A model generated the notes under the pieces. That model made no database searches, had not been told where the DNA came from, and was given only the letters and a program-made list of their open reading frames with translations. A stretch of 63,995 nucleotides of DNA, filler included, from Sanchytrium tribonematis (lineage: Eukaryota), in assembly GCA_018985235.1 (NCBI GenBank). It is 8 parts of 8 records of this genome, joined end to end, with 100 filler letters (N's around TTAATTAATTAA, not from the genome) between each part and the next. Parts side by side here need not be neighbours in the genome. Positions count along the whole stretch, not along the records: positions 1 to 5,349 come from JADGIG010000617.1; positions 5,450 to 32,037 come from JADGIG010000060.1; positions 32,138 to 37,475 come from JADGIG010000618.1; positions 37,576 to 42,910 come from JADGIG010000619.1; positions 43,011 to 48,338 come from JADGIG010000620.1; positions 48,439 to 53,765 come from JADGIG010000621.1; positions 53,866 to 59,172 come from JADGIG010000622.1; 1 more part is not named here. One strand, 5' to 3'. Positions 3,815 to 57,161 of this stretch are shown piece by piece. Positions within the stretch are counted from its first letter, which is position 1. Each line of letters begins with the position of its first letter. A program made the position numbers and the translations under genes.

Positions 3815-4772
3815 ATGACGATGATCGCAGGTAAATACAGATTGGGAAGGAAATTGGGCAGTGGATCATTTGGTGAGATCTATCTAGGCACTAATGTAGT
3901 CACTGGTGAAGAAGTAGCGATTAAAATGGAGTCTATACGTGCTCGCCATCCACAATTAGAATACGAAGCCAGAGTCTACAGATCATTAGCAGGTGGGGTG
4001 GGAATCCCATTTGTAAGATGGTATGGTCAAGAAGCAGAATATAATGCCATGGTCATAGATTTATTAGGCCCGAGTCTAGAAGATTTGTTTAATTATTGTA
4101 ATCGTAAATTTAGTTTGAAAACTGTTCTATTGCTCGCGGATCAAATGATTTCCAGAGTCGAATATATCCATTCTAAAAATTTCATTCACAGAGACATCAA
4201 ACCTGATAATTTCTTGATGGGACTCGGTAGAAGAGCCAATTTGGTCAATTTAATTGATTTTGGTCTGGCTAAGAAATACAGAGATCCTAGAACCCATTTA
4301 CACATCCCCTATAGAGAAAATAAGAATTTAACAGGTACTGCTCGATATGCGTCCATTAATACGCATTTGGGTGTTGAACAAGCTAGAAGAGACGATATGG
4401 AATCTTTGGGATATATGATGATGTATTTCTGTAGGGGCAGTCTGCCGTGGCAAGGATTAAAAGCAGCCACTAAAAAACAAAAATATGACAGAATTATGGA
4501 AAAGAAAATGACGACGCCCACAGAAGTCCTTTGCAGGGGATTTCCTAAAGAATTCACAGTGTATCTAAATTATTGTAAAGGATTGAGATTTGATGATAGA
4601 CCCGATTATGCGTATTTGCGTAGATTGTTTCGAGAATTATTCATTAAAGAAGGATTTAGTTATGATTATATATTTGACTGGACTATAATGAAATACGAAC
4701 GAGATGGAGAGAAAGGGTAATTTATATTTATTTAGAACACCTGAAGCACCTGTACAGCAACCACAGGAATAA
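3815..4772 (+). CDS. HRR25: Casein kinase I (HRR25/CK1 delta-epsilon type); exons 3815-4716 and 4736-4772
   Basis: [27 protein letters not shown] and [10 protein letters not shown] motifs. Removing the 19-nt intron gives the C-terminus [13 protein letters not shown], whose stop overlaps AATAAA. Confidence 0.95.
4717..4735 (+). other. 19-nt spliceosomal intron
   Basis: gtaatttatatttatttag; same length and 3' end as the other tiny introns. Confidence 0.75.
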
Positions 4773-4981
4773 ATAAATTCATTGTTTTTTAAACACAAAA
4801 TTGCAATTGATTTGCAAGTCGTGTCGTTTGGTTGAATGCGTACCAAGTATTCATATGAATTATCTGACTGGTTACAGAAAACAAAAGTTTAATATAAAAG
4901 CAATGAAAATGTCTCGCACCAATCATCGTTTCATTAATTTAGACGTAAAAGTCTATTTAAACCTCCACATCGCTCAAAATT

Positions 4982-5349
4982 ATGTTGATGATCCAAATTG
5001 TATTAAGTGCTTCTCTGAATGTCTGTTGGAATTGGGGTTATTATTATTTGCAAAGAGGCATGTTGAGTTCTGACAATTATTACAACTGGATTTCAGATTG
5101 TTGTGTATATGGTGCCCAACCAGCTCATTTAATTTTGGGAGATCCTTCTAAAAGCAAGACACCTGTAAATACAGGTCCATTGACCATTCCATTAAATATT
5201 CCAAATTCTGCAGTGAATGAAAATAGCAATGTGGTTTTAGCTTCTTCAATTTACAAAAATGCAAAAGGACATCGTGTTTATCGATATCAACGCACTATTT
5301 GTCTTAAATCAATTGTAAATTCAAATAACAAGGAAAAAGATTTCCAAAA
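4982..5349 (+). CDS. Hypothetical secreted protein, truncated by contig end
   Basis: Signal-like N-terminus MLMIQIVLSA; frame open to the gap. Confidence 0.5.
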
Positions 5350-5449
5350 NNNNNNNNNNNNNNNNNNNNNNNNNNNNNNNNNNNNNNNNNNNNTTAATTA
5401 ATTAANNNNNNNNNNNNNNNNNNNNNNNNNNNNNNNNNNNNNNNNNNNN
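5350..5449. other. Artificial contig spacer; others at 32038-32137, 37476-37575, 42911-43010, 48339-48438, 53766-53865, 59173-59272
   Basis: Identical 100-nt N44-TTAATTAATTAA-N44 blocks carrying stops in all six frames. Confidence 0.98.
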
Positions 5450-6170
5450 ATTTTCATTCCAGATCTATCTGTGATTGAACATTTGATCTTTTTTGGTATT
5501 TTAAAGGGGTTAGAATTGAAAACAGCAAAATCGCAAGCAGATGCTGCTTTATTACACGCTCAATTGAATGGATTTCAAAAGCGATTCCCTAATAAATTAA
5601 GTGGAGGAGAGAAGAGAAGAGTGTCTATTAGTATGGCAAATGTGAATAATCCATCTTTAATCTTTTTAGATGAACCAACGACGGGATTGGATCCAGAAGT
5701 TTTTTTGATTTATTTAGGTGCGTAGATGTATTTGGACAATGATTGAAGAAATGAAAAAGACATCTACTGTCATTTTAACCACTCATAATTTGGAAGAAGC
5801 AGAATATTTGTGTCATAAAATTGGAATCTTTGTGCGTGGTCAATTTAAATGTTTAGGGACATTGCAACGATTAAAACAGTTGTATGGCAGTGGATACCAC
5901 ATCACATTAAGTGTAGATAAATTAAAAGTTGAAAATGTCAAGAAAGAATTAACCAACATCTTTGAGGGATCTGAATACAAATTTGTAGATAATTTTGAGA
6001 ATTTGATTAATTTACAAGTCTCTTATTCAAAAGGATGTTTAACCAAATGGTTTAATTTGTTGGAATTGGCTAGACAAAACAAAACAGGGATTATTGATTT
6101 TGGTATTTCTCAAACGAGTTTAGAAGATGTCTTTTTGAGATTAGTTAGTGAGAGTGAAGCAGCTGCTTAA
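5450..6170 (+). CDS. ABCA-subfamily transporter, C-terminal NBD (5' part missing); 19-nt intron at 5699-5717
   Basis: LSGGEKRR signature; spliced [43 protein letters not shown]-terminal motif. Confidence 0.92.
5699..5717 (+). other. 19-nt spliceosomal intron
   Basis: gtttttttgatttatttag; removal joins two ORFs into the conserved [13 protein letters not shown] motif. Confidence 0.88.
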
Positions 6171-6242: not shown

Positions 6243-8213
6243 TTATTGAATACAAATTGGATGCGAATGTCCATTTCTGATTCCAAATTTAAAGAAATTT
6301 AAAATCGATACAATGTTATGCTTTCCTTCCTGTTTAGCCAAATCAAATACGGTTTTTTCTCCATTATTTTTAGCATTTAAAGTGCTCATTGCCATATTCA
6401 TTTCCCCCTTTACAATAGGGTGATCAAAACAGCATTTGCGAATCATCGGATTTAAATTACTTGCTTGTGTTGTTTCCAAACATCCAAAAATGTACCGAAG
6501 CATTATTGTGAATATTTCTTCATTGTTAATAGCATTCATTAATGCAGTATATCCATGCGTATTTTGAATTTGAAAATATTCGATATCTGGCTTTAAATCC
6601 AAGAAATACGTTATACATTCCAAATTCTCAGCACTTGCGCAAAAATGCATTACAGTATAGCCACAGTCATCCGCAATAAATGGAACTAGAGTACCGCCGG
6701 ATATTCTGGATCTAATCCATTGATTGATTATTGAATTTTTGTCGAAATCAGATAATTCTTGAATCATAAACATGTTTGAAATAGCAGGCTGAAGTCTGTG
6801 TTGTTTTGATTTTATCTGTAACCATTTGTTTCCATCAGATTCTCTGGCTATGTTTGTTTTTGAAAGTAATAGATGAATTTTGTGATACGTCTTGAAATGA
6901 ACTCCATTTTGAATGGCTGTATTGTCAAATGCCACTTCCCCAAAACGAGTTAAAAATTTCGCCAAAACTTTAATGGAAGGAAATTCAGTCATTATTAATT
7001 GGAGATATGACCCAACTATGCGACTTGTAATCTTTTTGTCAATATCATAATTCATAATGAGCAACGAAACTTTGTCAATTCCCATTATTAATGAATGATG
7101 TAAAATTGTCATTTCATTATTGTCCTGTGCATTTATCATTGGTTTTTTATTATATTCAAAATATAATTTCAACACTTTGAAGGTGTGGTTTGGATCTTCT
7201 ATACCGGCTATGGCCTTGTGCATCGGCGTTTGTAAATTTGAATTAATTGGATTTAAATTCAAATTTGGCTGAACCAGCAAGTGGCCCATGAATTCGAGAT
7301 TGCGATTTTGCATTGCCAAATGTAGAATAGTGTCTTTTTCATTATTTGCAACATTTAAATCTGGCCTAAATTGAATTATAAATTGAAAAGAAAAGGAAAT
7401 AATTTCTAAATTATTTTCAAAAGTTAACAGGTGAAGTGGTGTATCTCCCTGGTGATTCTGTGCATTAATTTGATTTTCTTCTACTATATCATAAACTATT
7501 TGAAGTGCATATGGGTTTCTAATTGCTGCATGAATTAAATTATTCCCATTTTCATCCAATTGGTGGAAATTGTAGCGTCTTTGTTGCTGTATTTCAATAA
7601 ACGTCGGTAAATAATCCGGGTAATTTACAATACAGTCATGAATAATGGGATAATTGTCAAATGCGGCAATCCATTTACGATTTGGATGCTCAATTGCCTT
7701 TTTCCAAATTTCTCTATAATTAAATCCAAATTGCAATAGCCATTTCAAATCTTCTAATTTGTTATTTTTTACCAAATAATCATAATATTCATTATTAAAT
7801 TGCCCAAGTCTTATAAAATCTGTGAGTTCTGGACTCAGTTGATATTCGAGAAATTTCAGAGTAGCACGAGAGAATGGCAATTTTTCATCAGAATCTTTCA
7901 GTTTAACGTTTGCATGTAAAGTAAGCAGCAAATAAACAGCAGGCAAATTTGATTTCTCTGCAGCCATATGTAATGCACTGGTTTCTAAATTGTCACGCAC
8001 CCTCACAAGACCATTGACCTCTGGGTGTTTATCGAATACCAGTTTTAATATTTCTCTGGATTCACCCATTGTCGCAAATACCACATCTTCTGCAGTTGGA
8101 TTTGTTGGAGTTTGTAAGATTTCTCTAACTCGCTCTACATCTTGTTGTTCGATGCAATCAGTCAAAGTCTGACAATTGGCAAATATTACATTCCATAGCA
8201 AGTACATCAACAT
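6243..8213 (-). CDS. Ankyrin-repeat protein with short signal-like N-terminus
   Basis: Multiple GDTPLH/DTILH/QTPMH/GYTALM repeats; N-terminus MLMYLLWNVIFANC. Confidence 0.88.
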   Translation of the reverse strand: MLMYLLWNVIFANCQTLTDCIEQQDVERVREILQTPTNPTAEDVVFATMGESREILKLVFDKHPEVNGLVRVRDNLETSALHMAAEKSNLPAVYLLLTLHANVKLKDSDEKLPFSRATLKFLEYQLSPELTDFIRLGQFNNEYYDYLVKNNKLEDLKWLLQFGFNYREIWKKAIEHPNRKWIAAFDNYPIIHDCIVNYPDYLPTFIEIQQQRRYNFHQLDENGNNLIHAAIRNPYALQIVYDIVEENQINAQNHQGDTPLHLLTFENNLEIISFSFQFIIQFRPDLNVANNEKDTILHLAMQNRNLEFMGHLLVQPNLNLNPINSNLQTPMHKAIAGIEDPNHTFKVLKLYFEYNKKPMINAQDNNEMTILHHSLIMGIDKVSLLIMNYDIDKKITSRIVGSYLQLIMTEFPSIKVLAKFLTRFGEVAFDNTAIQNGVHFKTYHKIHLLLSKTNIARESDGNKWLQIKSKQHRLQPAISNMFMIQELSDFDKNSIINQWIRSRISGGTLVPFIADDCGYTVMHFCASAENLECITYFLDLKPDIEYFQIQNTHGYTALMNAINNEEIFTIMLRYIFGCLETTQASNLNPMIRKCCFDHPIVKGEMNMAMSTLNAKNNGEKTVFDLAKQEGKHNIVSILNFFKFGIRNGHSHPICIQ

Positions 8214-8349
8214 GTCAATCGTGTTTGACCCTGTTCCTTTTAACAGGATTGCTGTACAATCTTGTGTTTAATTTTTACCAATGAAATGGTCAGACAAAAA
8301 CACAACATCGTACAATCTGCTACATCATTTGTTATCACTATTTATTGAT

Positions 8350-10246
8350 TCAATATCGCATACGCAACAATCCCTTTGCAATATCCAATGCTTGTTTTGA
8401 ACCAGGATGCTGACATTGTTTTATTGCAAATATCTTCTCTTTACTTTTATTTTTAGCATTTATTGCAGCCAATGCCATTTCAACATGATCATGATACTGT
8501 ATACACCCTACAATATAGTTTAATAATACAACAAGTACATCTGCATGATCACAACTCATCATTAATGCCGTATTTCGTTGATTATTTTGAATTTGCAATT
8601 GGGGATGAAATTGAATAAAATATTGAATACATTCTAAATTGCCCAATTGTGCACATAAATGCATGACATTGTTGTTTTCAGTGTCATGTGCAAATATATC
8701 CAGTGATTGTTCAATAAATCGTTGTTGCATCCAAATTTGTACGATTTGAAATGCATTTAGAGATGGATAGCGTTGAGTTATTTGAATGTGTTGTAGATAG
8801 TAGTAGATTTTATGATAAGATGCATCATTTGCAGCAATTGAAATGGCATTAACATCCAATGGCAAATCGGGGAAATGTTTGATAAATTTTGAGAATAATT
8901 GAAATGGAAATGGATGTGTGATCAATTGCTGTAGATATGAGACTCCATTTCCATTTAAGATGGTTGGATTCAATGGATAATTTAATAATATGTTGATTAC
9001 ATTCATATAACCATGTTTTATTGCCAAATGCAATACCGTGTCACCTGATTGATCTGGTGTATTCAAATCTGGATGTGGGTTGTATTTAAGATAGATTTGG
9101 ATGGATTCCATAATGAGATGCTCTAGCTTACCAGGTTCTGAAACTGCTAAATGCAAAGGTGTTTGTTGATGGTGATTTAATTTGGTTAATAGTCGTGAAT
9201 CGACACGATGAATGATTTGAAGCAATTCATTTGGCTTTGAAATGGCTACATGTACTAATGTATTGCCATTTACATCCAATTGGTTAAAATTGTAGTTTGG
9301 AATTCTTTGGATTAATTCAGGCAAATAAGACGGGAGTCGCTTTATGCAAACATGCATAATTGGGGAATTATAAAAGGATCTAAGCCATTTGGGATCTGGT
9401 TGGTCCATTGCTTTGATCCAATTACCTTGAAATGTAAAACCAAATTGCAATAAATATTGCAAATCAAGTAATTTATCATTGGCTACTAAACATGTGTGCC
9501 ACTCCAATTCATTAAATATCAAATATTTAATAATCATTCCATTATCAATCCATATTCTATCTTATTTAGCGTATTAATGAGTATTTGTTACTGTTCTAGT
9601 CAATTCTTGAGCAATACGGGTCTAAAATCCATTCCTGTGAGTGTAGCCACATTAATTCGACGATCTAATGTCTTATTTGGTGTATTTTATGGCGTAGTCA
9701 TTTTTAATGAGTCATTGGATATTTACAGTATATGTGGCTGTTTGTGCATTATCGGTGTCGTATTGATATTGGCATATGAACAATATACCCATCAACGAGC
9801 TGCATTTTCATTGATATAGGCTATTCTGGAATAGGGACTGGTGTCTTTTTTACCCATATTCTTAAAAATTCCAATTTTGTATAGTCTTGTGGGATCTTGC
9901 CATGGTTGTCTTGAATGGTAGTAGATGCGCCATTTTGGAGTAGTAGAAAGACGGCTACAATCCTAGTATTTCGTACTGCGAGGTGTAATGGTGTACCAGG
10001 GTGTTTTTTGAAATGTTTTAATTGATGGATATTGATATCAATTCGGGGAACATTCAATACCATATCCAATATAGTGATGGATTCACCTTGTGCTGCATAA
10101 TGTAATGCGGCATATCCATTTGAACCCAATTGGTTGATATCCAAATCTGTATTTTGCAAGTAGGATGAAACCTGAGTCGGATTCTGTTGAATGATGCATT
10201 CATTTAAAGAATTGCAAGATGCGAATGATAATGGGATGAGCCACAT
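8350..10246 (-). pseudogene. Ankyrin-repeat paralog of 6243-8213 interrupted by a 304-bp insertion
   Basis: ORFs 9821-10246 and 8350-9537 align with consecutive parts of 6243-8213. Removing 304 bp between two CCATATTCT repeats restores EFLRIWIDNGMIIKY in frame. Confidence 0.8.
9559..9853 (+). pseudogene. Captured fragment of an EamA/DMT-family transporter C-terminus
   Basis: GLKSIPVSVATLIRRSNVLFGVFYGVVIFNESLDIYSICGCLCIIG is a typical EamA C-terminal pattern; no start codon. Confidence 0.7.
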
Positions 10247-10489
10247 TGATTTGAGATGGGGGCTGGATTCTTTTAACTTGCATTTATTGCGAATAAATTG
10301 CGACAGAACTGCGAATAAATTGCGACAGATTCGTGCACGTGTGCAAAAATCAAGATCATGGGACACTTTCATTGCTAATTGGATTAGCTAATCGAGTCAC
10401 ATGGGAACTCATTTGATAAAAGATTGCGAATATGATGAAATTAACAATTAAAAACTTTATCGTGGAAGTCTGCAATACTTCAAATTTAT

Positions 10490-11359: not shown

Positions 11360-14300
11360 CTAAGCTGACGAATGATCCTGATCAGCACCAGTTTCTTGAA
11401 TTATTTTTTCGCCAAATGTGGATTTTTTTAATTTCTTCAATAAATCAAATATTTCTGTCTCACTGCCATTTTTAAATGTGTTATAGATGTTGCTTGTTGC
11501 CAGATCTGTGTTTTCTACTAGGCATACTTCCTCAAAATGTGCAGTTGAATCAAATGGCTGCTCACAATACTCACAAATAGCTCGATATTCATCATTTCCT
11601 CGGAATGGCATTCGTCCCATTAAAAACAATACCCCCAATTTTAGTGTACTGTGGGAATATGTGTAATTGTATCGATTTTTCTTCAGTAAAATTAGCAAAT
11701 TTGAAGTTGTTTTTAATTTTGAGCCCCTATTAGCCCTGTTTTCATCCCACATGTCTTGTAATCTCTCTTCAACTGTTAATTGTAGTTCTTCAAGAGTATT
11801 GGCACTTAGTGGGGTGTAGCCATCCACAGTTTCACAGAAAGAAGTGTTAAATTTCAAGATTTCAATGTAATTTAGAGGAGTTCGCGGGTCAGATTGTAAC
11901 TGGTAAATGCAATTTCTCAATTGGGTCTCCAATGATATTCTATTTTTATTGTATAATTCATTGGAATTTAAAAATTTGCACAAGTATTCATGAATAAGCC
12001 TTGAGTGGCGAAAGACACCGTTGACAGCTCCTTTTCTAATTGATTCTAGTCTTTCTAGATATTTGACATCCCATAACGGTAGCCCGTAGCTCAAAATGGA
12101 TTCAATTACCCCTTTCACAAATAATGGTTGTCCATGAAATAGTTTATTTGCTTCTTCAGTATGGATTTTCTTTTGCACTGATGCGATTTGTTTATTTTTA
12201 TGAACCAGCTCGGCATCGTAGTCAATCCCATCACAATTGATGTGGATTCCCAGATATTTAATAAATTTTAAAGATTCTAATTCTTGATTATCTACCACAA
12301 ATGAGTATTCAGAAGATGCGCAAATTTGGTATTTATTAGGATTCGCCTTGAAATTATGGTCTTTGAGTTTACTAGTGATATTGTTGAGAATCAGTTGCAA
12401 ATAATTTGGATTATTTGCGCACAAGAATATATCATCTGCATACAAGCAGATGGCTATTTTGCTGTCATCGTAGTCTAGTTCTGAAAGAATTCGATCAATT
12501 ATAAATGAAAATAAGAGTGGTGAAAGTGTTCCACCTTGTGGAACACCCTGTTTCATTTCAATGGTTTGTTTTAATGAATCGCGCTTTAAGTAAAGAGATT
12601 GATTGACAATCAGAGATCTTAGTGCATTACAGTCAATAGGAGTAAATAAATTTACTACATTTTGTTCAATATCATCCCAATTGATATGATCAAATGCTGA
12701 AGATAAATCCAAAGATGCTAAATAAACATCTCCATTTCTTTTAAATTGTTTTATGGTATTTAATACGAAGTGCAACTGTGTCAAAGTGCTTCTAGATTGG
12801 CAGAATCCATGTTGACGGAAACTGGGGATTAAAATATACTTTAATTTAAAATAATACAAAATTTTTTCATATATTTTACGAACTGTAGGTAGGAGAGAGA
12901 TGGGTCTATAGAATTTCGGGTCACTATGGGATCCCTTGTTTTTATAAATCTCACAGATAGATGATTTGCACCAAGATTCTGGTAAATCGCCGTGAGTGTA
13001 GGCTTGTTGGAAAAGATGCTTCAAGACTTTGATGCCATTTGAAGGCAAGAACTTTATTGATGTATTTGGGAGTATACCACCAGCTGATTTCCTTGTATTT
13101 AATCTTCTTGCTTCCTTTCTAATTTTTTCACAACTGAAAAGTGATTTGGATTCTTGATAGGCTCGATTTATTTGTTCTTCTGAAGTGTGTTTCTTATTCC
13201 AACTATGATTTGGTGCATCAAAGTGATTTTTTTGATATGCAATCATTTCTTCTTCATTGCAGAATATGCGATTGGGATTAAAATTTGAATTTTTTATTTT
13301 GCAAAGTTTGTGGTAGGCATTTGTAGAGTCTTTATTAATTTCCTCCAACACTTCCAAGTGATTTTGATACACCTGATTCTCCATTTCCGAGTTGTATTTC
13401 TTGCGACATTGTTTAATTTCTTTTAACAAAATGATTCTGCGTCTCCTGGATTTGACTCGTGAGTAAGTCTGCTGCTTTCTTTTGATGTATTTGTTAATTG
13501 AATCCAAATTACTAGTAAGAATACGACACTCCGGGAAATTTGGGATTATTCCAAGTGTTTGTTTGTCAGCCGTGAGCACGCAACTTGTCAAGAAATTGTC
13601 AATTTCATTTACATTTATTGAATCTAACAGATTGTCATTATATTTCTTTATTAAATTCTGTAGCATTGATTGATATTGTTTCCTGAATTTGGGTATTTTC
13701 AATTTTTTCCAATTTATCTTCTCTAATGAAAGCATCATTTTATCAGTTTCTAATTCAATAATAGATGGCCAATGATCTGAGGTGTATTTGTCAGGTCTTT
13801 GTATAGTTAACAAGGACTTAACTGCATGTTGGAGGCTAGAATGGGACCAAAAGTGGTCCAATATTTTATTTGTATTTACCATTGTGCTGGTTGTTACATT
13901 ATGAAATACATACGATTTATTCAATAAATAACACTTCAATTGTTTGCTGAATAGATCTGATTTGGAATCTATTTCCAAGATGTTGAAATTCAGGTCACCA
14001 CAAATAAATGCATTGTGGGAAATTGCCTCATTGAGAATAGATTTGATATATTCTATATTTCGAGTTCTAATGTAATGAAATGGAATGTATGTGAATGCAA
14101 TATTTTGCCTATTTATCTTAAAAATATAACAATTGTCAAAAAATTTAATTTTATTCACACTTGTTACGGAATTATGAATGAACAAGTGCTGCTTATGGTG
14201 TAAATTTGAGTTTGGAAGATCCCATTGAGTATAATTATTGATATGTGGCAGATATTTATAGTTTTTAGACTCTTGTAACAGCAGAATGTGTGGCTCAAGT

Positions 14301-14584
14301 TCCAATAAATTGTTTAATTCTTGTTGATTCAGAACTCTTTTGTATCCACGGCAATTCCATTGCATGATTCTTAATTTGTTAGTGAATGTGCATGTGTAAT
14401 TGGACTCTCCATCTAAAGATTCAGGGATATTATAATTTATTTCTGATGGTGGATCGGAAATTTGTGTAAATAAAGTTGAAGAAAGTGTATTTCGAGCCAC
14501 TTTGTTTTGTCTAGTAGTGTTAATTGCTTGTCTTTTCAATGGAACCATGTCATTTGGTTCAGACTTCAAAATCTTTGTGGGCAT
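11360..14584 (-). CDS. LINE APE endonuclease-reverse transcriptase, uninterrupted 1074-aa frame
   Basis: All APE and RT motifs present, including YADD, plus the C-terminal CCHC. Confidence 0.93.
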   Translation of the reverse strand: MPTKILKSEPNDMVPLKRQAINTTRQNKVARNTLSSTLFTQISDPPSEINYNIPESLDGESNYTCTFTNKLRIMQWNCRGYKRVLNQQELNNLLELEPHILLLQESKNYKYLPHINNYTQWDLPNSNLHHKQHLFIHNSVTSVNKIKFFDNCYIFKINRQNIAFTYIPFHYIRTRNIEYIKSILNEAISHNAFICGDLNFNILEIDSKSDLFSKQLKCYLLNKSYVFHNVTTSTMVNTNKILDHFWSHSSLQHAVKSLLTIQRPDKYTSDHWPSIIELETDKMMLSLEKINWKKLKIPKFRKQYQSMLQNLIKKYNDNLLDSINVNEIDNFLTSCVLTADKQTLGIIPNFPECRILTSNLDSINKYIKRKQQTYSRVKSRRRRIILLKEIKQCRKKYNSEMENQVYQNHLEVLEEINKDSTNAYHKLCKIKNSNFNPNRIFCNEEEMIAYQKNHFDAPNHSWNKKHTSEEQINRAYQESKSLFSCEKIRKEARRLNTRKSAGGILPNTSIKFLPSNGIKVLKHLFQQAYTHGDLPESWCKSSICEIYKNKGSHSDPKFYRPISLLPTVRKIYEKILYYFKLKYILIPSFRQHGFCQSRSTLTQLHFVLNTIKQFKRNGDVYLASLDLSSAFDHINWDDIEQNVVNLFTPIDCNALRSLIVNQSLYLKRDSLKQTIEMKQGVPQGGTLSPLLFSFIIDRILSELDYDDSKIAICLYADDIFLCANNPNYLQLILNNITSKLKDHNFKANPNKYQICASSEYSFVVDNQELESLKFIKYLGIHINCDGIDYDAELVHKNKQIASVQKKIHTEEANKLFHGQPLFVKGVIESILSYGLPLWDVKYLERLESIRKGAVNGVFRHSRLIHEYLCKFLNSNELYNKNRISLETQLRNCIYQLQSDPRTPLNYIEILKFNTSFCETVDGYTPLSANTLEELQLTVEERLQDMWDENRANRGSKLKTTSNLLILLKKNRYNYTYSHSTLKLGVLFLMGRMPFRGNDEYRAICEYCEQPFDSTAHFEEVCLVENTDLATSNIYNTFKNGSETEIFDLLKKLKKSTFGEKIIQETGADQDHSSA

Positions 14585-16741
14585 CGAATTATTTTCAAAG
14601 TCATTTTTACGTTTATGGTTTTGTATTTGACTGCCACCAAGTTAATTTTTCTGAAGACGATTTGGTACGAGTTTGAATTTTCGAAAATTGAAATTTGGAA
14701 ATTGATCTCTGATTATTTGAAAAAGATGCATTTTGTTATATGGACATGCAAACTCATAGTGTTGTAAGTCATTATGGTTATTTAGAATGGTTAAATGGGC
14801 TGTGGTCCCGTCATGGAGCTCATGATATCTTGAGATGGACAGATTTAAAAATTGGCTGTTTATTGAATGACTAATAGAATAGATATTGAGTTTAAAAGGA
14901 AATGATGCAGATCTTAGTAATGATTGAGTATTAGGTAAAAGACATTGGCGGAGTGTGTGGCAGAGTATTGGCAAATCTGGCGTATTTGGATATTTCAATG
15001 AAATAGAGTTCGAATACATTTGAGTCATAATTTGGGTATCATGGTAAGCAGCATTAGCGCATGAATGATGATTGTTATTATGGATCTCAGTAAAATGAAA
15101 ATGACTTATATATTTGAGAAGAGAACAGATGCGAGTGTTCTCATTATCATAGAATGAATAAGAAATTATAGGTATATTATCTTTCGGCATCATTTCAAGG
15201 TGTTTATCATCATGCTGAGATTTCAAATTTGTAAATTGATGCAGTACTACTTGAATAAATAGAATTGAAAAGAAATCAAATTTATTTAATCTTCCAAGGT
15301 CATGCCAGTCTAAATGAGTACCAAATACCAAGATAGGCTTAATAGTTGTAATATGCAACATTTTGGCAATCTTTGCAGTAAAATCTTCATCCAATTCAAT
15401 GAATTCTCCGTCATCTGTGATTCCTTGATAAATAATATCCAAATCTCTAAATTCTGGTCCGTAGATTTTAACGTATTCCTCTTTAAGGGCACTGACTAGA
15501 TTTTCATCTTTGGGGAACTGAAATGATAGTGTCAAATCCTGTCCTGATTCGTCAGAAATGGTTAAATCAAATGATCTGGTCTCAGTTGAGTGATGATTGG
15601 ACTTCAATTGGCTAAATACTTTAGTATATCTAGATTTGTTAGATTCAAGGTCATGGGTGGCATTTTGGATACCAATTTGCTCAATATTGGCCATTAAACG
15701 TGTTAACGACTTGATTGCTGCCATTTTGATGATGGAATTGGTTCCCAAATTCTCACTCATTCCAAATGATGGGATCTGATCACTCTTTAATACCTACTTT
15801 GGGACCACGGATTTGAAGTAGTAATCTAATTGTGTTGCATTGCAACGATTAAATCCTTGTTCAGATACATATGCATTGGAATTAACCAATCTACTAGGAC
15901 TAGCAATGAGAGCAATAAATACGCATTTATATCGCACATCTAAATCTTCAGCAAGATGAATGAACTCACAAACTTGATGGTTGAGGCAATAATTTCTCAC
16001 TGTTTTGGCGGATTTCAATGCAGAGATGGGTCCAAAGAATACATTCAAATGGTAAGCATGAGTTAATTTGTAATTGGAATGGATAATTGATTGGATAGCT
16101 GGCATGTCTAAATCATAAATATCTGTGTTGGGATTTGGTGAATTCACGTGTTTGACGGAGAAAGTAGAGAAGTTTGTGGCTTGCAAATCGAGTGTAATAT
16201 GAAAGTAATTTGGGTCACTGACCAAATAACATGGTAAATTGGCGTCATTTTCTTCAATTTGCTCACAATATGATTTGATAAGCTCTAGATACTCCTTGTA
16301 AATCCCTGATTGTAGATGCTTCATAGGTGCAGTAATGTGGTTTCTTAAAGCCACAGTATCCATTTTTTCGGCTCGTAGACAGAACTTAGGGATTGTTAAT
16401 TCACGATTAAATTGTAAAGGTTTCCTATCCATGAAATAGTCGTGGGAACACCAGAATTCAATATGTTGTGCATATTTCTGTGAACCAATCGCTGCTGTGG
16501 TTCCTTGGGCTACTGCAGGGCAGGAAAGAGTGTGATTGGGGGTCAAATGTTTTGTTAATTTTATAATGGTCAATAAATGTCCTCTTGAAGTGTCTTTAAT
16601 AATGTTATCAAGATCTGCTATCTTTTGTGCATCTCTGGAGCCAGATTGGAATGCTTTTAAGCTTCCTTTTAACTGAGATGACATATCAGAAAGACCTTGC
16701 AAGAGTTTATAAAGTGCGAGCGCAATTGACATGTGAGCAAA

Positions 16742-21110: not shown

Positions 21111-21318
21111 GAACTACCGACAAGGGGAGCAGAGTACTCGACTGTGAGTTCAATAACCCGTCCTGTAGTGATTCTTGCCAAGTGGCACTTGATCTGAGGT
21201 CTGTTGATGTCACATGTCAGTGATCCGTGAATAAATTTAATTGGTCAGTGATTACACAATAGTTTCACCTGCTTCGATTATCTTTCACGTCGATCGCAAG
21301 TAGGGTGAAGCGTGAAGT

Positions 21319-22440
21319 GTGAAGCGTGAAAGTGATTCTGACGAAAATATTGACTTGTTACTGCTTTATTTATATTTTAAGGCACCCAAGAAGATCCCAA
21401 GAAAGCCACGATCATTTTACCAACCAATTCCTAGAGCATACATTTGGTATCATTTACAAGTAGCTGTTTTACATGATAGACACTATAGATTCTTTTTTCG
21501 TATGACTAAATTGCAATACGAATCCCTTTTAAATATTTGCATGCAAAGCGATCATCATTATTTACTAAATTCCCCAGTCGCATTTTCGAAAAAATTACAC
21601 ATCTATTTATACTTTGTTGGGAATAATCCATATAATACAGAGATGGTAGATCGCTTTGGCGTAGGATCACCACTCACTTATGTATTGGAAGTTGCCAATT
21701 TATTGAATGAATCACTTTATAACAATTTCGTAAAATGGCCAGATTTGACAGAAAAAGTAGCCATAAAACAACAATTTGAACAATATTGTGGTTTTAAAAA
21801 TATAATTGGATGTATAGATGGAACCCATGTGGGGATATCTGGTATTGGCAAATTCAGAAATGGATATACAACAAGAAAGAGTGTCTACGCAATTAACGTG
21901 ACATTTGTGTGTGATTATAATAAACAAATAAGATATAGTATAATTGGCTGTCCAGGTGCATATCACGACAATCGCGTATTTGAATTATGTGATTTGCACA
22001 ACAATGAATCACAATATTTTGATGGAAATGATGTCATGTTGGGAGATTCTGCATACAAGGGATCCAATAATGTGGTTGTGCCTTATACAAGTCCATCAGT
22101 AAAAGAGAATGTCAGTTTTAATTATTTACACGCCAAAGCACGTGTAAAAGTTGAAAATACGATTGGATTAAACAAGGGAAAATTCAAGGTGATGGGAACA
22201 CAAATTAGAATCAAATCAATTAGAAAAATAGTGATTATCATCAAATCAATTACAGTGGTGCATAATTTTATCATTCAATACAGTTTGAGAAACAATACAG
22301 AAGATGTTTGGGAGGAGGATGAATTACATGAAAATGATTTGCAAGTTGTAGAGCAATATCCAGAGCATGCAGCCATAAATTATAGATTTAATGTATCAGC
22401 ATTTGAAAGAAAAGAGATTATGAAGAGGACAAATGAATAA
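21319..22440 (+). mobile_element. PIF/Harbinger DDE transposase (HARBI1-like)
   Basis: IIGCIDGTHV, GAYHDNRVF, LGDSAY, FNYLHAKARVKVENTIG motifs; convergent with a Myb/SANT partner gene. Start codon unclear. Confidence 0.92.
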
Positions 22441-32486: not shown

Positions 32487-33324
32487 TTGAATTCAATTAG
32501 AAATGAATCATCGGTAATATGCCACGATGATTCAACATTACACCATCGTGTGTACCCACCATCACGTACTTTCAATCTATTTCACAAAAAGCAAGCCACG
32601 TTTGTTTTAAAAATGGATTTCATTCAAGATCCCCAGATCTCTCCAGATGACTCGATCAAAAGATTAGAACAATGCTATGAACAAATAGGATTATCATTAC
32701 GTCCTAGATGGTTAGCATTGACTAAAAATGATCAATTAAAACTCTATTCCAGAGAAGAACCCATAGTTGAGCATATCCAACAATACACGTCTGAAATCAT
32801 CAATAAAGTACGCAAGAGACCCAACACGGTTATCGATGCACCACCAGAGATCACCATAACACCCACATCATCAAGCACTTCAACCACGAATCAACGTGCG
32901 TCTATTGACACCACCAGCAAAACGCGTAAAAGAACATCGTCAGCAAGTGATTCAGAAGACGGTGTAGAAGGTTTAAATGTCGTACAAGTCAAAAAGAATT
33001 GGTTAAAAGTATTTAAAGAGTCTAATGATTTAGAAGTCATTCATTCTCAAGAAATGAAAAAGTCACAATCCATTCCCCTCAGTGAATTCTCAATGGTATT
33101 TCTAATTTATATAGATTTCAGAAGCAACTAGTGATTCTAATGGCACTTTACAAGTAGATGAACAAAATTTGATTCAAATCATCAATTTAAATGAAAGTAT
33201 TAAGCATTATTGTGTTGGAGATTGCTTAGTTATCAAGAAAATAGATCAATTGATTAAGATTAAAGGGATAGATGTGCAAGATTGGGATGTAGAGATCTCA
33301 TTTGCTATTAAATCACAACAATAA
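32487..33324 (+). CDS. Hypothetical protein with Ser/Thr-rich linker, possibly PH-like; 19-nt intron at 33096-33114; start uncertain
   Basis: Splicing extends the ORF (SM|ISEATSDSNG...AIKSQQ*) to a stop overlapping AATAAA. Confidence 0.65.
33096..33114 (+). other. 19-nt spliceosomal intron
   Basis: gtatttctaatttatatag; removal opens about 70 more codons. Confidence 0.75.
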
Positions 33325-38995: not shown

Positions 38996-39523
38996 TTATT
39001 GTGTACCCACTGACGAAGAATCAATCTTTTCACGTGAGACAAGCCACTTCTTGTACAGATACATTCGTTGGACAACAATTCCACCAAAGATTAATGTCAA
39101 TCCAATTACTACAATTCCTCCAGCAACCAAAGCAGTGGTTGTAGTAGCTTTGAGTGCTTTTATGGTGGCATCTGTTGAACTTGGATTACTTTTTTCTTGA
39201 TCAATTGTCTGATTGATAGTTGTGCCCATCATAGATAAACTTATAATAGAGAGGATAATCGCCACTGTAATCAGTGCTACGAAGGTCCACATTGCAGTGT
39301 TTGCAGTTTTGACTTTCTGAGTTTTAATGCTTAAGAACCCAACCATTGAAGCTACAATAAAAACAATTCCCTGAATGATATATATTGCACCTTCTGATTT
39401 AAATCCAAGATCGACGTACGTAGATCCTTTCGCAATGTCAACCGATCCACCAATTAAAAAAAGAGCGTACATAATGCATAATCCTAATCGGACACCACAA
39501 CAACAACATTTTGGTTCTCTCAT
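38996..39523 (-). CDS. Four-TM membrane protein, tandem paralog of 38076-38657
   Basis: Shared REPKCCC and YKKWL.SREKIDS termini; stop overlaps AATAAA. Confidence 0.8.
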   Translation of the reverse strand: MREPKCCCCGVRLGLCIMYALFLIGGSVDIAKGSTYVDLGFKSEGAIYIIQGIVFIVASMVGFLSIKTQKVKTANTAMWTFVALITVAIILSIISLSMMGTTINQTIDQEKSNPSSTDATIKALKATTTTALVAGGIVVIGLTLIFGGIVVQRMYLYKKWLVSREKIDSSSVGTQ

Positions 39524-39952
39524 GAGTAAGATAATTATTTGAGAATACGTCCTTTAAATGTATGACTTCAGACTTGCACCTTTATTGCAACTCCCTTGCA
39601 AATTTCTTGCAGTTTCCTTGCTCCAATAGTAGGACATTGTGATTAAATGAACTGCACCGTTGATTTACGTTGTCGGGTCTATGAGCTAAAAATCAATTTG
39701 TTCAAATGGGATTCTTTTCTCTGATATTATTTGGGACACGTTCTTTAGACTAGGAGAAAATCTTGGTTTTCTGTAAATTCAATTTGAAATTATTACCAGA
39801 CTTTAGACTATGAAAACTAGACTGGAGTGATATATGCTCCATAAGTCTATTTATTTCGACAATCCAAGTGACCTGTTTTAAAAATTACTGTTAAGTTTTC
39901 TCCAAAAAAGGATGTATCAATATTATTTGATCCTCTTTGGTCATAAATTTGG

Positions 39953-43431: not shown

Positions 43432-44570
43432 ATGTGGCTTGTGAAAATGTCTAATGTCCCAAACTATTCACTTGTCACGGATCCGATGTTAGCTCTGATT
43501 CTATATCTCATTTACGCGTGTATTGGATTATTCTTTTTCATTTATTTTAGAAATTCCATTACAATTCGAAATAGACTTCCAAAATTAGTATTAATAGAAA
43601 GTTTATTGATTATATTAAATGGATCATTTAGTATTTTGAATATACATCCATTTTTGGGTACCAGATTGAGTTGTGAGTGGTTTCAATTTATTGCTTCTAT
43701 TTTAGGATGTGTTTTATTGACATTTTTGATGATGCGAATGAGTTTTGTATACCAGTATCTGATGAATGAAGTAGATATTAAATCGTATGATGGATTAATG
43801 CTCATTTCAAAAACATTTTGGGATAAACACAACAATATTCGCAAATGGCCCATTTTCATCATCTTTATAGTGCTTTTAATAGCCAATATATTAAATGCTA
43901 TTCTACCCACTTATGCATTTCAACAACAAACTGGTTTAACCGTCTATCCCTTTGAATGTTTGCAAAATGGTGTCTTCTTTCTCACTTTATATGATTCCAT
44001 CTTAATGCTCTTATTTCTAGCATATTCCTTTCAATTTATACGCTATAGAATATTCGATCAAATCTACATGAGTGTCGAATTGATCTCATTTACATTTGTT
44101 TTAATAGGGGCAACGATTATTTATTTTGCATTAAATATGCATATTTACATTGATGCAGCCATTTTACAATGCTGGATTGGTCTATTTTTTGCATTATATT
44201 TCCCAGTATTAGCTTATTTAAACCATATGCATATGATCCACCGTGAATTATCCAAATCCGTCCATTCCATGATTGATGAAAAATTAATGTCACTTTGCCG
44301 TCAATTTTATTGTGAAGAAATTGGCATCTTTTTAGAAGCATATGAGAAATATAAAGTCAATAATATCACCATTGATTATATCATCACCATGTTTATTGGT
44401 ATTTTCATTTTTATTTAGAAACAGGTGCCCCATTTGAATTGAATATTAGTTCCAATTTAAAAGATAATTTGATGAATACCAATGGTGAATTACAAGTCAT
44501 GTATTTAAATCAAATTTATTCAGAAATGAAATTATTGGTGCAATTGAATATTTTACCGTATATGACGTGA
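43432..44570 (+). CDS. 7TM-RGS protein (GprK/AtRGS1-like architecture); 20-nt intron at 44399-44418
   Basis: Seven hydrophobic segments, IRNRLPKL motif, then CRQFYCEEIGIFL...MFI|ETGAPFELNISS RGS signature after splicing. Confidence 0.85.
44399..44418 (+). other. 20-nt spliceosomal intron
   Basis: gtattttcatttttatttag; removal restores FIETGAPFELNI. Confidence 0.85.
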
Positions 44571-46861: not shown

Positions 46862-47962
46862 TATTCCATTCCATCTCTTTGTTGTACCACCCAATGAAAC
46901 AGGTGTATGCTGTGATGGGGTATTTGGAAGCCATTCAAGGTTTTAAAAAGAGAAATGTGGCAATGGGATTATTGAATTATGGGAAAGTGAATTGGGATGG
47001 AATGGCATTATTTGTGAAATATTTAGTACGACAATTGAAAAATGAACCCATTCAAGGCTATTGAATCAATGCATTTTTAAGAGATTTTCAACGAGTGGAT
47101 GATTTTAATCATCAATTGAATATTCATGAATATCAAATGGTTGAAAATATCAAATTGATGAGACAATTAATGGGATTTATGACTGATTTACAATTGAACA
47201 TATTTATTAAAATCATCATGACGGGTAAAAGTGAATTGGGGGATGAACTATTGAATGAATTGGGGGTATTAAATGATAGGGAAATTGAATTGGTGTATAA
47301 ATATCAAGTAAAATATGGTATGATGGGTGAAACTAGACATTTTAAAGCAGTGGGGTTTGCAATTAAAAAGTTATTATTTGGCACATCCTGGTCATTTTGG
47401 ACACATGTCTGTGAAACAGATTCATTTGATTAAGGATGGAAATTATGTGCAACCATTAATTGATGCAGTGATTCAAAGCAAATGGGAGTTTAAGGATGTT
47501 TTTAGATTATTGGATGAATTGGTGTATCAAGGTCAATGTCACTTATTACAGAAAATATTCAGTCAGAAACCAATTATAGTGAATGGAAATGAATGGATTA
47601 TACTTGTATTAAATCCATATTTGCAATGTGATGCAAAAATGTCTGATTTGATTACCAAAGGACATTTAGAAATTAAATTTGATGTTCAAACATTGTTTGA
47701 ATTTGTACAAATTTTATTTGATGCAACTATTGATAACAAATTGTATTCTAGAAAATATTTACATGAAATTGTATTAAGTGAGTTTTGTAACAAGTTAGAT
47801 GAAACTGACTTGAGACCCTCTAAGGAACATTTGAAGGGTGTATCCTTTTCCCTACTTCCAAGTGATTTGGCTAATAAATACAAAGCATTTAGGGATGGAA
47901 ATGGACAATGTAGACGTAAAAGAACCTCACAACGTACACAAAGACAAGCAAGGCAACATTAA
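46858..47962 (+). pseudogene. Unknown protein broken by one in-frame TGA (47062-47064) and a frame change near 47400
   Basis: ORFs starting 46858 and 47095 share a frame; 47327-47962 continues in another frame. Confidence 0.4.
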
Positions 47963-48647
47963 AACAATAAAGTATTTTCAAATTTAACCCCTTTTTGCAA
48001 GTCATTGTCACCAAAATGGGAAGTCAATTGACCCATTCTTTGTTGTGTGACCATGATGTGATACAGACTCATATTGATTGGTTCATGGGTATTTTTTGAG
48101 GTACAAGGAGTCCTTTTCAAACATGAAAAGCAATCATGCGTTTCCATTGATGCTATTTGCCCTTACTATATTATTTGGGTTTCCTGATATTACCATTAAT
48201 GATGGACAGAAAATGTGTTGGATTAAAGTACTAAAGCACGGAACGGATAAGAGGATATACTGGTACCAATTAATTGATATTGAAAAGAAAACTGTTGTAC
48301 AAAATACGGTTTCAAAGAATCATCTAATTGAAGTGCTANNNNNNNNNNNNNNNNNNNNNNNNNNNNNNNNNNNNNNNNNNNNTTAATTAATTAANNNNNN
48401 NNNNNNNNNNNNNNNNNNNNNNNNNNNNNNNNNNNNNNCAGTGGTATCAAAAGCAAAAATGCCAAATCCAAATTCCAGATTTCTGCTCAAATTGATATTA
48501 AAAAATTCACAAACACTTTGGTGATCTTCATGGTTAGTCTCGCCCTGGACGAGACAATTATGTATTATCCATTTCACGGAAGTAATTTGATTTTATTTAG
48601 CTTTTACCAGAAATATTCAGTCAATACCATATGCCATTGCTATTATT

Positions 48648-48953
48648 TTGAGAGATTTGAGCATTTCGGTCGATCCTACAAAGTGGGAAAAAACCTTTGA
48701 AGTTGTGTGCCAGCAATTTCTAGAGCAATCTTGTCTTTACCTAATGAAATTGGAAAATGATAAAAGAGCCAAAAAAGTAAGTGCTGTCATGATGCTGTTG
48801 GAAAAGTTTACGCAACTGACTTTCACAAAGTACATTCACATTTTAAGAAGAAAAACCTGCTTACCTGCGAAGCAATATTATGTTGCAAGTGCTTGCCACT
48901 TTATAGCTAAGGAGTTTTACACGAAAGATAATCTCGATGATGACAAGGAATAA
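48648..48953 (+). CDS. 3' end of a hypothetical protein
   Basis: Stop overlaps AATAAA; upstream part broken or lost at the contig start. Confidence 0.35.
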   Translation: MRDLSISVDPTKWEKTFEVVCQQFLEQSCLYLMKLENDKRAKKVSAVMMLLEKFTQLTFTKYIHILRRKTCLPAKQYYVASACHFIAKEFYTKDNLDDDKE

Positions 48954-53765: not shown

Positions 53766-54106
53766 NNNNNNNNNNNNNNNNNNNNNNNNNNNNNNNNNNN
53801 NNNNNNNNNTTAATTAATTAANNNNNNNNNNNNNNNNNNNNNNNNNNNNNNNNNNNNNNNNNNNNCCCCCAAATACCCAAAGTTGGTCCCCAGCGAGAAA
53901 CAAACGTACGCACAGCCATGTTTCAAAATAGTTATCCCAGTGGATAAATTTCAAAATTTGTCCACAGATGAAAGTAATAAAATCAAAAATGCAAATAGGA
54001 TCTAAAATCTGTTATCAGACAAGATTTGTTGATTGATTGGGAACATCAGACCCAAGGCCTATTATGTTGTACTTAATTAGAGCTTTCCCACTGTTGAAAG
54101 ATATCA

Positions 54107-55636
54107 ATGGGCGGCAGATCACCAAATAGCAATAAGATTAAGCCCACGATGACGGTTTACAATGGAATTGCATTAGTTGCCACAATGATGATTGGAAGTG
54201 GTATCTTCGTCACTCCTGGCTTAATTGTGGCCAAGATTGGATCAATTGGCACGGTTTTATTTCTATGGGTACTAACAGCATTTATTAGTTTTTGTGGTGC
54301 CAACACCTTTGTGGAATGGGGAATGTTATTTCCTAAAAGTGGGGGAAGCTTATCATATTTGGCCTACGCTTACAAAAAACCAAAATACCTCGCCAGTTTC
54401 ATATACTGTCTAACACAGGTTGGAATCATTTGGCCAGCTATGATCACAGCAGAAGCAGACGCATCCTCAAAGCAATTGCTTTATAACGTCACTGATTTAG
54501 AGCCTTGGATGGTTAAAGTTTCCAGTGCTGTTCTTGTTACAATAATTGTGCTTATCAATTATTTTAGCGTTGAATTTGCTTTGAAATTATCAACTGGATT
54601 AACTTACTTAAAGATCTATACCCTTTACGCTCTGTGCATCGCTGGTATTTTTGCTTATTGCGGAATAAGCTCTAAGCCTATGGCAGAGAGTGTGGATTAT
54701 GTTGGCACTCCCTCAACAAAGCCCGCAGATTATGCTTCGGCAATTTACAAATTATTGTGGGTATTTGATGGTTGGAATAATTTGAATTACGCAATTGAAG
54801 AAATGAAGAATCCTGCAAGAGACTTTCCAAGATCAGTTTACTTTGGTTTTGGGATCACAACAGTTCTCTATATATTGACCAACTTCTTTTTTATTACGAT
54901 TGTTCCTTATGATCAAATTTTATCCAGCAAAACTTCTATTGCAACAGTCTATGCAACGATTATTTTTGGTGATTTTGTGGGTGGGAAAATGGTTCCATTT
55001 ATTATCTTTCTCGGATGCTACGCTACAACGGACAATATGGTATATGGGGTGTCTAGAATTATCCACGCTTCAGCAAGTAGTAATATTTTACCTTGGAGCA
55101 GGACATTTGAAAAATTAGACACAAAAAGAGGAACGCCAAGAAATGCTCTTATTTATGTATGGTGCATTTGTATGGCTTTGATTGCGATTCCACTTAGTGA
55201 GGACGCTTTTAGCTTTTTCTTACAAATGGCCATGTATCCAAAGTGGATTTTTTATGGGATGGTTATTTCTGGTTTACTTTACTTGAGATACAAGGAGCCA
55301 TTTTTAAATAGGCCTGTTAAATCATATCTCTTTTCCGGAATTACAATAGTTATAGCAAGCGTATTTTTGGCTATATTTCCACTGTTGGGAAGCGATATGA
55401 TCCCATCTGTTGCATCTCTATTAGTTATCTTTTTGAGTGCTATGATTTACTTTGCAAGACGTAAGAAAGTAGAAGAAGCTGATTTTGGATTCCATGATAC
55501 CGCTAATCTGAAAGAACACAAATCAGCATTAGAAAATACCATATACACTGAAATGGGATCCTCAGATTACGAATTTGTGAAAGAATTTGCAAACGCTAGA
55601 TCTACAGTAGCAACAACTGTGGCTACCGCGGAATAA
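54107..55636 (+). CDS. APC-superfamily LAT-type amino-acid permease (Mup1-like)
   Basis: MIGSGIFVTP, E.G...PKSGG..Y, FDGWNNLNYAIEEMKNP; about 12 TM. Confidence 0.92.
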   Translation: MGGRSPNSNKIKPTMTVYNGIALVATMMIGSGIFVTPGLIVAKIGSIGTVLFLWVLTAFISFCGANTFVEWGMLFPKSGGSLSYLAYAYKKPKYLASFIYCLTQVGIIWPAMITAEADASSKQLLYNVTDLEPWMVKVSSAVLVTIIVLINYFSVEFALKLSTGLTYLKIYTLYALCIAGIFAYCGISSKPMAESVDYVGTPSTKPADYASAIYKLLWVFDGWNNLNYAIEEMKNPARDFPRSVYFGFGITTVLYILTNFFFITIVPYDQILSSKTSIATVYATIIFGDFVGGKMVPFIIFLGCYATTDNMVYGVSRIIHASASSNILPWSRTFEKLDTKRGTPRNALIYVWCICMALIAIPLSEDAFSFFLQMAMYPKWIFYGMVISGLLYLRYKEPFLNRPVKSYLFSGITIVIASVFLAIFPLLGSDMIPSVASLLVIFLSAMIYFARRKKVEEADFGFHDTANLKEHKSALENTIYTEMGSSDYEFVKEFANARSTVATTVATAE

Positions 55637-55648
55637 ATTAATCCATTT

Positions 55649-57161
55649 TTATTGTGATGGCTCTCTTAGTGGCGACAACTCGTTTAGAGACATATACTCT
55701 ACCAGTTGGTTTGGTATTTCAGCTAGCAATTGCGCTGGAAGTTGAGTTAGTATTTGATCATAAGAGGTGAAGTCTCTCATAGCTACAAATTGAACTATAT
55801 CTCTAGTAGCTGACTTTCCATTTATGCTAATCGGCTTGATATCTCCATCTAGCACTGCCATTTTGGCAAAATCTGCTGGCCCTACTCCCACAATCACAAT
55901 AGATAATGGACAGGCACATGCTTCGATAATCGCTGCGATCGTGTCATCCATATCAGTTATTTCACCATCTGTCGTTATCAACAAAACAAAATACTTTTGC
56001 GCTCCATTTCTCTCCACCTTGCTAATTTCAGTCAATTTACGAATAATTGGTGCAAAATTCTAAATTAAACGTAATTACGGTAGGTCCATACAAATCAACT
56101 TGATAAATGCAATTTCTGTATGCGCCAAGAATACCTTGTACTCCAAAAACTTCTGGGTTCGGTTGAAGTGTGACATTAAAATCATGGAATACTTGTCCTT
56201 TGATTTTTGCACCAAATCCAAATACGGGAAACATCCGGTCTGCATCATAATACTCTAGAACATTTCCAATGCTTGTTATCGCCTGTTCATAAGCAGTAAA
56301 TTTTTGAGATGGATTGGCTTTATCTCCAATGTAGTGAAGACTTTTTGCATCCTTTGGGTCACCATTACTCCCTGTAAAGTCAATTGCAACTGCAAAATTT
56401 AGTAGTGTGCCATTTTGAATATAATCTAAAAATGTATATTGCTTTACGACTCTGATTGATGTGAATTTCAAGCTTCCTGCTTTTTTATTCTTCTTACTAA
56501 TTAGATCTATCTCAAACGGTTCATTAAATTGATCCGCATTGAAAGTACCACTGCCAATTAAGTCATGATCGCTATTTTTATCCCAATCAAAACAATCAAC
56601 TCGATACTTTTCAACATATGGGATCGATAATGGTTGCCATGCTGGATTTAATGTGTTTTTGATGGTCTCGGAAGTAAAAAGTTTTTGATTTGTCAGCGCA
56701 TTGTAAATGTGGAGATAAGGATCAGATTTGCCAAAAGTATCTTTCTTGTCCAAATTAATCCCATTAATAGTCATTTTTACGACTCCAGCTCTTAATTGTT
56801 TTATTTCCTTACCGCTTATAATGATACTACCTTTTTCTTTGCTATTTAATACCAATGGCTTCTCAATTTGAGATTTAGTCATTATTTCAGCAAGGGTGAT
56901 AGAAAGTAAGCCGAGTTCATCCCATTTTTTGCCATCGTCATCCCTGACATGAAATTCAAGCTTTTGCACTTGTTCAAAGAAATAATTCACTTGAATTTTG
57001 GTGTTGAAAATTGGATTCAAATTATTTTTCACGGTTTCCGTCTTTCCCACTTCTTTTTGATTTTCCAATACGACACAAAACGGATCGCTCTTACTTAGCG
57101 CATCTTTGTTTGCTATCCCTTTGCATGAGATAGAAAGCAATACCGGAACAGAAATATTCAT
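55649..57161 (-). CDS. Copine (C2-C2-vWA); 19-nt intron at 56060-56078
   Basis: Two KSDP C2 domains; AIDFTGSNG; spliced LYGPT|NFAPII; ITTDGEITD; RDIVQFV. Confidence 0.95.
56060..56078 (-). other. 19-nt spliceosomal intron
   Basis: Minus-strand gtaattacgtttaatttag; removal restores the copine motif GPTNFAPII. Confidence 0.92.

Follow-up and report, generated by a model that had tools for sequence, protein, structure and literature searches.

Six genes in a 63,995-nucleotide (nt) stretch of DNA from Sanchytrium tribonematis, an alga-parasitic fungus, are each interrupted by a short insert with GT...AG ends, 19 nt long in five cases and 20 nt in one. The stretch, hereafter the window, is made up of eight contigs with N-padded linkers between them. 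Judging from the sequence, we think it probable that the inserts are introns that the major spliceosome likely removes, branching being predicted at the adenosine (A) six bases from the 3' end, that is, at position -6. Their removal restores reading frames, and one of the insertion sites is common to Amoeboradix and to relatives in ENA, there too at 19-20 nt. The six predicted introns, and a seventh candidate that is not counted, are as follows.

4717..4735, plus strand: 19-nt predicted intron, phase 2, near the 3' end of a CK1 gene (Hhp1/Hrr25-type, 3815-4772)
5699..5717, plus strand: 19-nt predicted intron, phase 0, in the D-loop (between DPE and VRR) of an ABCA-type transporter gene, 5450 (contig end) to 6170
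33096..33114, plus strand: 19-nt predicted intron, phase 0, in an unknown gene, 32613-33324 (basis: motif and frame join)
44399..44418, plus strand: 20-nt predicted intron, phase 1, in a membrane-protein gene, 43447-44570, whose C-terminus we take to be RGS-like
48582..48600, plus strand: 19-nt predicted intron, phase 1, in a gene truncated at the start of its contig, 48440-48953 (basis: motif and frame join)
56060..56078, minus strand: 19-nt predicted intron, phase 0, in a copine gene, 57161-55649 (between GPT and NFAP)
47318..47336, plus strand: weak seventh candidate, 19 nt, with GT, A at -6, TAG and 58% AT

Five of these segments, on five different contigs, had been listed in the initial annotation, and each exists at the coordinates and on the strand given above (lengths 19, 19, 19, 20 and 19 nt). 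The properties ascribed to them there, namely GT...AT(T/A)TAG ends, a length that is not a multiple of three and an A at -6, are true of all five. The insert at 48582-48600 (+) is new, lies on a sixth contig and has the same form; it was found by a frame-join scan and a motif scan. With it, the A at -6 is fixed in 6/6 inserts, and the rough chance of an A at one column in all six is 0.007 after allowing for 14 columns. The last ten bases of the window inserts read (A/T)TT(T/A)AT-(T/A)TAG.

Scoring across the window sets these segments apart from other spans with GT and AG ends. Under leave-one-out scoring, every held-out insert ranked between 2 and 12 of 6,394 GT..AG spans (17-40 nt), with 48582-48600 ranking 3 when the model was trained on the other five. 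A motif derived from the inserts had 12 matches among 13,137 spans of 12-60 nt, of which the six at 19-20 nt are the six inserts; it should be noted that this motif was written from the inserts themselves and is thus circular for the training set. The matches differ in what they join: open frames of 40 codons or more on each side were joined by 5/6 of those at 19-20 nt and by 0/6 of the longer ones, against a background of 3.3%. The insert that falls short is that of CK1, whose last exon has just 12 codons, while the inserts at 33096..33114 and 48582-48600 join frames open for 215 and 69 codons and for 47 and 116 codons, respectively. No motif match longer than 20 nt joined frames in the 64-kb window, and the window scan found no high-scoring in-frame intron of 18 or 21 nt. 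This amounts to about six introns per roughly 39 kb of long open frames.

Four other motif-like spans, at 63063-63082 (-), 58884-58906 (-), 4928-4942 (+) and 44501-44523 (+), were rejected, since each either interrupts a continuous frame or a homolog alignment or connects nothing. The seventh candidate, 47318-47336, connects open frames of 84 and 207 codons. The gene around it, 46893-47959 (+), contains an in-frame TGA near 47062, changes frame near 47320-47430, and may be either a frameshifted pseudogene or the carrier of an atypical 19-nt intron.

The restoration of frame by removal, which had been claimed at the outset, is backed by homology in the copine, ABCA and RGS-like genes and weakly in CK1, so that comparison with homologous proteins supports the intron reading for three of the six. 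In the copine gene, the Pfam match is split at profile positions 86/87, exactly where the insert sits, and GPT-N is intact in 110 of 112 full-length copine homologs. The spliced ABCA product aligns without a gap to an intronless ENA ortholog, P0244 (69% over 226 amino acids). The spliced junction of the RGS-like gene is spanned without a gap by 31 of 36 family members, the other five being the window's own read-through product and four members that end earlier. The CK1 insert site is unbroken in 4/4 close relatives, and removal gives a Q/P-rich tail like that of the uninterrupted relatives P0002-P0004. The alternative GT-AG pairs listed as reaching the same stop delete residues, except for one equal-length pair in the copine gene, which would put wrong-frame residues into the GPT-NF motif. 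Gene 32613-33324 and exon 1 of the RGS-like gene had no Pfam match, and for the gene with the sixth insert ESM Atlas recognition was low, with weak HEAT-like leads at best. The 36 RGS-like family members (P0366-P0401) are membrane proteins with an RGS-like tail and less than 50% mutual identity, and the membrane part of the window member has no Pfam match.

Sanchytrid proteins in the public record were predicted by TransDecoder on genomic contigs, that is, with introns ignored (PMC8371127). All seven of the closest copine relatives (49-64% identity; two A. gromovi paralogs and five ENA sequences) stop shortly past GPT, with Val, which corresponds to GT, as the next residue, and with the same codon broken. 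Their read-through tails were fitted to family-like continuations, which gave one solution each among the lengths that a tail can show; three of the seven were too short for decoding. As a control, the window's own copine tail (P0121) was decoded to its true 19 nt. The remaining four decoded to 19 nt (A. gromovi P0123, ENA P0124 and P0126) and 20 nt (P0122), and we therefore consider the trait common to the lineage. All lengths thus fall in a narrow class of at most about 21 nt, with 19 nt five times and 20 nt once in the window, and 19 nt three times and 20 nt once in the relatives. GT...AG ends and a pyrimidine at -3 are likewise found in 6/6 window inserts and 4/4 decoded relatives, and for the three relatives with 19 nt the decoding allows no base but A at -6. 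The A. gromovi copine intron decodes to ACNAAY-TC-AG. The acceptor form described in the initial annotation holds for all six window inserts but not across the lineage, where the T at -3 and the T/A at -4 vary (...TCAG in A. gromovi, ...GTAG in two ENA sequences).

A sanchytrid-specific CK1 DNA pattern had no match in JGI metagenome contigs, GTDB genomes or IMG/VR, and a scan of JGI contigs with the copine alignment returned 80 distant loci (best-segment identity 28-52%), none of them sanchytrid. Because these loci are all non-sanchytrid, no relative's intron was seen as DNA. Where the motif site was printed for these loci, it reads GPT-N/L/Y and lacks an insert; many of the loci may be transcripts. 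A search of RNA runs with 3600-5349 listed no RNA source, which counts neither for nor against splicing.

Tiny inserts can also have origins other than spliceosomal introns. Ire1-type introns are HAC1-like, about 20 nt long, and flanked by stem-loops with a CNG-NAG loop at both junctions. Of the six window inserts, two show a loose CNG-NAG pattern at one junction and none shows it at both, and their folds are weak, with no stable hairpin (-2.6 to -8.4 kcal/mol over 49-50 nt). An assembly or amplification artefact could be suspected, as the printed sanchytrid assemblies were made with SPAdes in single-cell mode (PMC8371127); however, the same codon is broken with GT in 7/7 related copines from separate sources. 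A programmed frameshift is excluded because the insert lengths require both +1 and +2 shifts and several inserts carry in-frame stops. Pseudogene insertion or a transposon footprint fits poorly with junction repeats of 0-2 nt. A derivation from introners or transposons, which would leave near-identical copies with terminal inverted repeats or target duplications, was rejected, as end complementarity is 2-4 of 6 in AT-rich sequence and the insert sequences differ from one another. Taken together, we regard these non-intron origins as very improbable.

The consensus of the inserts closely resembles that of Stentor, which raises the question of whether the contigs derive from a contaminating protist of a tiny-intron lineage, such as a heterotrich ciliate or a cercozoan. 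The CK1 of the window is 98% identical to that of Amoeboradix gromovi (EP00835) and 84% to that of Blastocladiella, and its best matches outside the sanchytrids are fungal (84%). A CK1 tree, the means of placement proposed in the initial annotation, puts the window with A. gromovi and three environmental relatives in one clade (100/100), and this sanchytrid clade joins Blastocladiomycota (8 rows, 100/99); the tree comprises 23 fungal rows with a midpoint root, the dinoflagellate match P0006 and most ascomycetes having been left out. Orthologs of the copine and ABCA genes are present in both sanchytrid proteomes, and the ABCA exon of the window is 100% identical to S. tribonematis EukProt EP00834 P007111, including eight intron read-through residues. 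By these protein comparisons the window organism is a sanchytrid fungus, and contamination is hardly credible. Sanchytrid genomes are about 11 Mb in size with 35% GC (PMC8371127). S. tribonematis P0242 has an ABCA read-through tail identical to that of the window; this identical stretch, read-through included, sits on a 5,571-base contig, while in the window it starts a 26.6-kb contig, and the two copies represent either a recent duplicate or an assembly overlap.

Within these introns, the A at -6 is likely the branch point. In the 20-nt window intron it tracks the 3' end (position 15, still -6) and not the 5' end (n=1). We propose that U2 small nuclear RNA (snRNA) would pair with a worn-down fungal branch box, in which ACTAAC has become (A/T)TT(T/A)AT with A at -10 and -6. 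This degenerate box would abut the YAG acceptor and the 3' splice site would be set by its distance from the branch A; because the box abuts the acceptor, no separate polypyrimidine tract would be needed. The initial annotation had held that there is no room for a separate branch box plus polypyrimidine tract, which is too strong with respect to the box, as a degenerate one can be recognized. The 5' splice site would be cut down to GTWWT, and excision would give a lariat with a loop of 14-15 nt and a tail of 5 nt. A length of 19-20 nt would represent the minimum that still accommodates U6 and U2 pairing, presumably reached during parasitic genome reduction and independently of ciliates, nucleomorphs, mikrocytids and microsporidia. 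The commonest geometry in Yarrowia is ACTAAC, 2 nt, AG (PMC2483917), and the decoded A. gromovi copine intron matches this layout.

The introns could instead be branched at an A further upstream (-10 to -13, in CTAAT, TTGAT and TTCAT), the A at -6 then being part of an extended acceptor signal. A crude score of pairing with U2 GUAGUA favours the upstream A in 4/6 introns, with one tie and one preference for -6, and an A is found at -10 in 3/6 window introns and, by decoding, is forced there in 4/4 relatives. However, the upstream A wanders between -10 and -13 whereas -6 is fixed in 6/6, and a branch there would leave a loop of only 7-10 nt that overlaps the 5' splice-site pairing. The second A at -10 is already predicted if the branch A at -6 belongs to an ACTAAC box, and A. 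gromovi has that box. We therefore judge an upstream branch point improbable.

Several points weigh against tiny introns branched at -6. Both splicing and the branch point are deduced from sequence rather than observed in RNA, the pairing score just described leans upstream, and the window has no snRNA gene (Rfam, 0 matches). For the relatives, the introns were reconstructed from protein tails instead of being read as DNA, and in the 20-nt relative the base at -6 is unconstrained. Two of the six inserts rest on motif and frame joining, and homolog support for CK1 is weak. Finally, with six introns sampled, the rest of the genome may still contain a class of longer ones.

The initial annotation also proposed a modified spliceosome, which finds partial support. 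We took an inventory from the A. gromovi eggNOG sheet (3,755 rows, PMC8371127 supplement file 4), in which about half of the proteome is annotated. Most core factors are present, including Prp8, SF3B1, Brr2, Prp22/16-type helicases, U1-70K, Prp40, both U2AF subunits and BBP, and likewise Isy1, Cwc25, Yju2, cactin, Sub2 and Upf1. In its favour, neither Slu7, Prp18 nor K12890 (the KEGG Orthology (KO) entry for SR proteins) was found in the sheet by name or identifier, which is weak evidence because of the partial annotation; a search for 'CDC40' matched CCDC40 only. In yeast, Slu7 and Prp18 are unneeded at short distances between branch and acceptor (PMC3392075, bioRxiv 212811), and their absence from the sheet fits this dispensability: with so short a distance, these second-step factors would not be required in sanchytrids. 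BBP is represented in A. gromovi by two adjacent open reading frames (ORFs) on one contig (rows 1135-1136 of the same file), the pattern that a tiny intron or a frameshift within the gene would produce.

Five introns can be placed within their coding sequences, all of them at 70-96% (post-hoc p about 0.002 under uniform placement), and the sixth, at 48582-48600, lies 353 nt before the stop of its gene. The motif scan is independent of ORFs, and therefore 5' introns of the same form should have appeared. In contrast to the five placed introns, those of Stentor and of ribosomal-protein genes in Encephalitozoon cuniculi are reported as 5'-biased. A late position would suit introns that are real but mostly retained, with truncated proteins or message decay as the main outcome and a regulatory role. 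Such a role, which is compatible with tiny branch-at--6 introns and differs in splicing efficiency, gains from the fact that all six inserts break the frame and the five placeable ones fall in the last 30% of the coding sequence, from the annotation of Upf1 in A. gromovi, and from E. cuniculi, where 30/37 introns are removed from fewer than half of the transcripts (PMC3629993). Retention would, however, cut two domains in half, vWA in copine and the nucleotide-binding domain in ABCA, and the ABCA exon downstream is 69% conserved and free of gaps, which argues that the spliced product is under selection. We consider predominant retention rather unlikely.

The ABCA gene is broken at different points among relatives: after DPE (D-loop) in S. 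tribonematis, after DEPTTGLD in A. gromovi (tail VFMN-stop) and after DEPT in ENA P0246 (VI-stop), with no break in P0244. If these breaks are introns, a reading that for all three positions rests on protein tails, they would form a near-intron set (PMC2891723) of three phase-0 positions within 18 nt, which suggests sliding or repeated gain. The RGS-like intron is missing at its site from 31 family members and the CK1 intron from 4 relatives, suggesting recent gain or many losses. The closest RGS-like relative, P0367, ends in VDDK-VI-stop about 37 codons upstream of the window intron, possibly marking another tiny intron at a different site. A fuller scenario, in which sanchytrids have the shortest fungal intron system and a spliceosome free of Slu7 and Prp18, introns are still being created and shifted, mainly in the last third of genes, and the RGS-like and CK1 introns are species-specific gains, is speculative and as a whole we hold it to be doubtful.

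Among published systems, one of the closest is Stentor coeruleus, with introns of 15-16 nt, of which the commonest is GUAAUUUUUAUAUAG, and a putative branch A at -6 (PMC9505925). Both systems have AU-rich GT-AG introns of a fixed length plus a class one nucleotide longer, a putative branch A at -6 in both classes, and near-identical ends (GUAAUU...UUUAUAUAG); those of sanchytrids are 4 nt longer and occur in a fungal parasite. Chlorarachniophyte nucleomorphs (18-21 nt) likewise have a 19-nt class in a reduced AT-rich genome (PMC10245619, PMC2483917), but are intron-rich (>800 in about 300 genes), unlike the window with about six in roughly 39 kb. Mikrocytos mackini (16-17 nt) is another parasite with few, uniform, ultra-short introns (PMC10245619), but the mikrocytid spliceosome has 17-19 proteins, whereas most core factors are annotated in A. 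gromovi. The sanchytrid introns also resemble the short introns of myxobolids (median 22-27 nt, PMC13644364). Yarrowia lipolytica shares the branch A at -6 (ACTAAC-NN-AG) and the lack of a polypyrimidine tract (PMC2483917), although it has long introns (median 204 nt) in which the box is strong.

Microsporidia are similar in being intron-poor holomycotan parasites with short, frame-breaking introns and a branch box near the acceptor. The sanchytrid introns are shorter, more uniform and later in genes, their box is degenerate where microsporidia have a strong CTAAYTT box and a GTAAGT donor, and their lineage is sister to Blastocladiomycota. They are likely the shortest spliceosomal introns among Fungi, the next-shortest range in the literature consulted being 22-76 nt in E. 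cuniculi (PMC3629993, PMC6349667, PMC2483917). No description of sanchytrid tiny introns was found in the literature, subscription journals lying outside the search, and the sister group is intron-rich, with 19,375 introns in Blastocladiella; an independent origin of fixed-length tiny introns, as the initial annotation supposed, is therefore likely.

The remainder of the window has other features, identified by reading translations where they are called putative. The regions 11363-31700 and 59273-63995 hold intact-looking and broken putative ORFs of non-long-terminal-repeat retroelements with endonuclease and reverse transcriptase (e.g., 11363-14641), together with a putative Harbinger-like transposase at 21316-22437 and further putative transposon remnants. 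At 33447-37474 (+), separate from the upstream intron-containing gene 32613-33324, lies the gene of a multidomain kinase that carries Sel1 repeats and has its kinase domain at the C-terminus. Intronless tandem paralog pairs or triplets occur at 361-2345, 6246-10387 and 38079-39553 (secreted-looking, ankyrin-like and small membrane proteins).

Because the public sanchytrid proteomes are plain ORFs on genomic contigs, intron-bearing genes such as those for copine, ABCA and CK1 are truncated in them, and such truncated entries affect claims of gene loss for the sanchytrid phylum. With two species in culture and several relatives known from the environment, intron gain, sliding and the prediction concerning Slu7 and Prp18 can be tested directly. 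Overall, our findings would add a fungal phylum to the few lineages with near-minimal introns, and the Stentor-like end sequences, together with the A at -6, point to a shared physical floor of the spliceosome.

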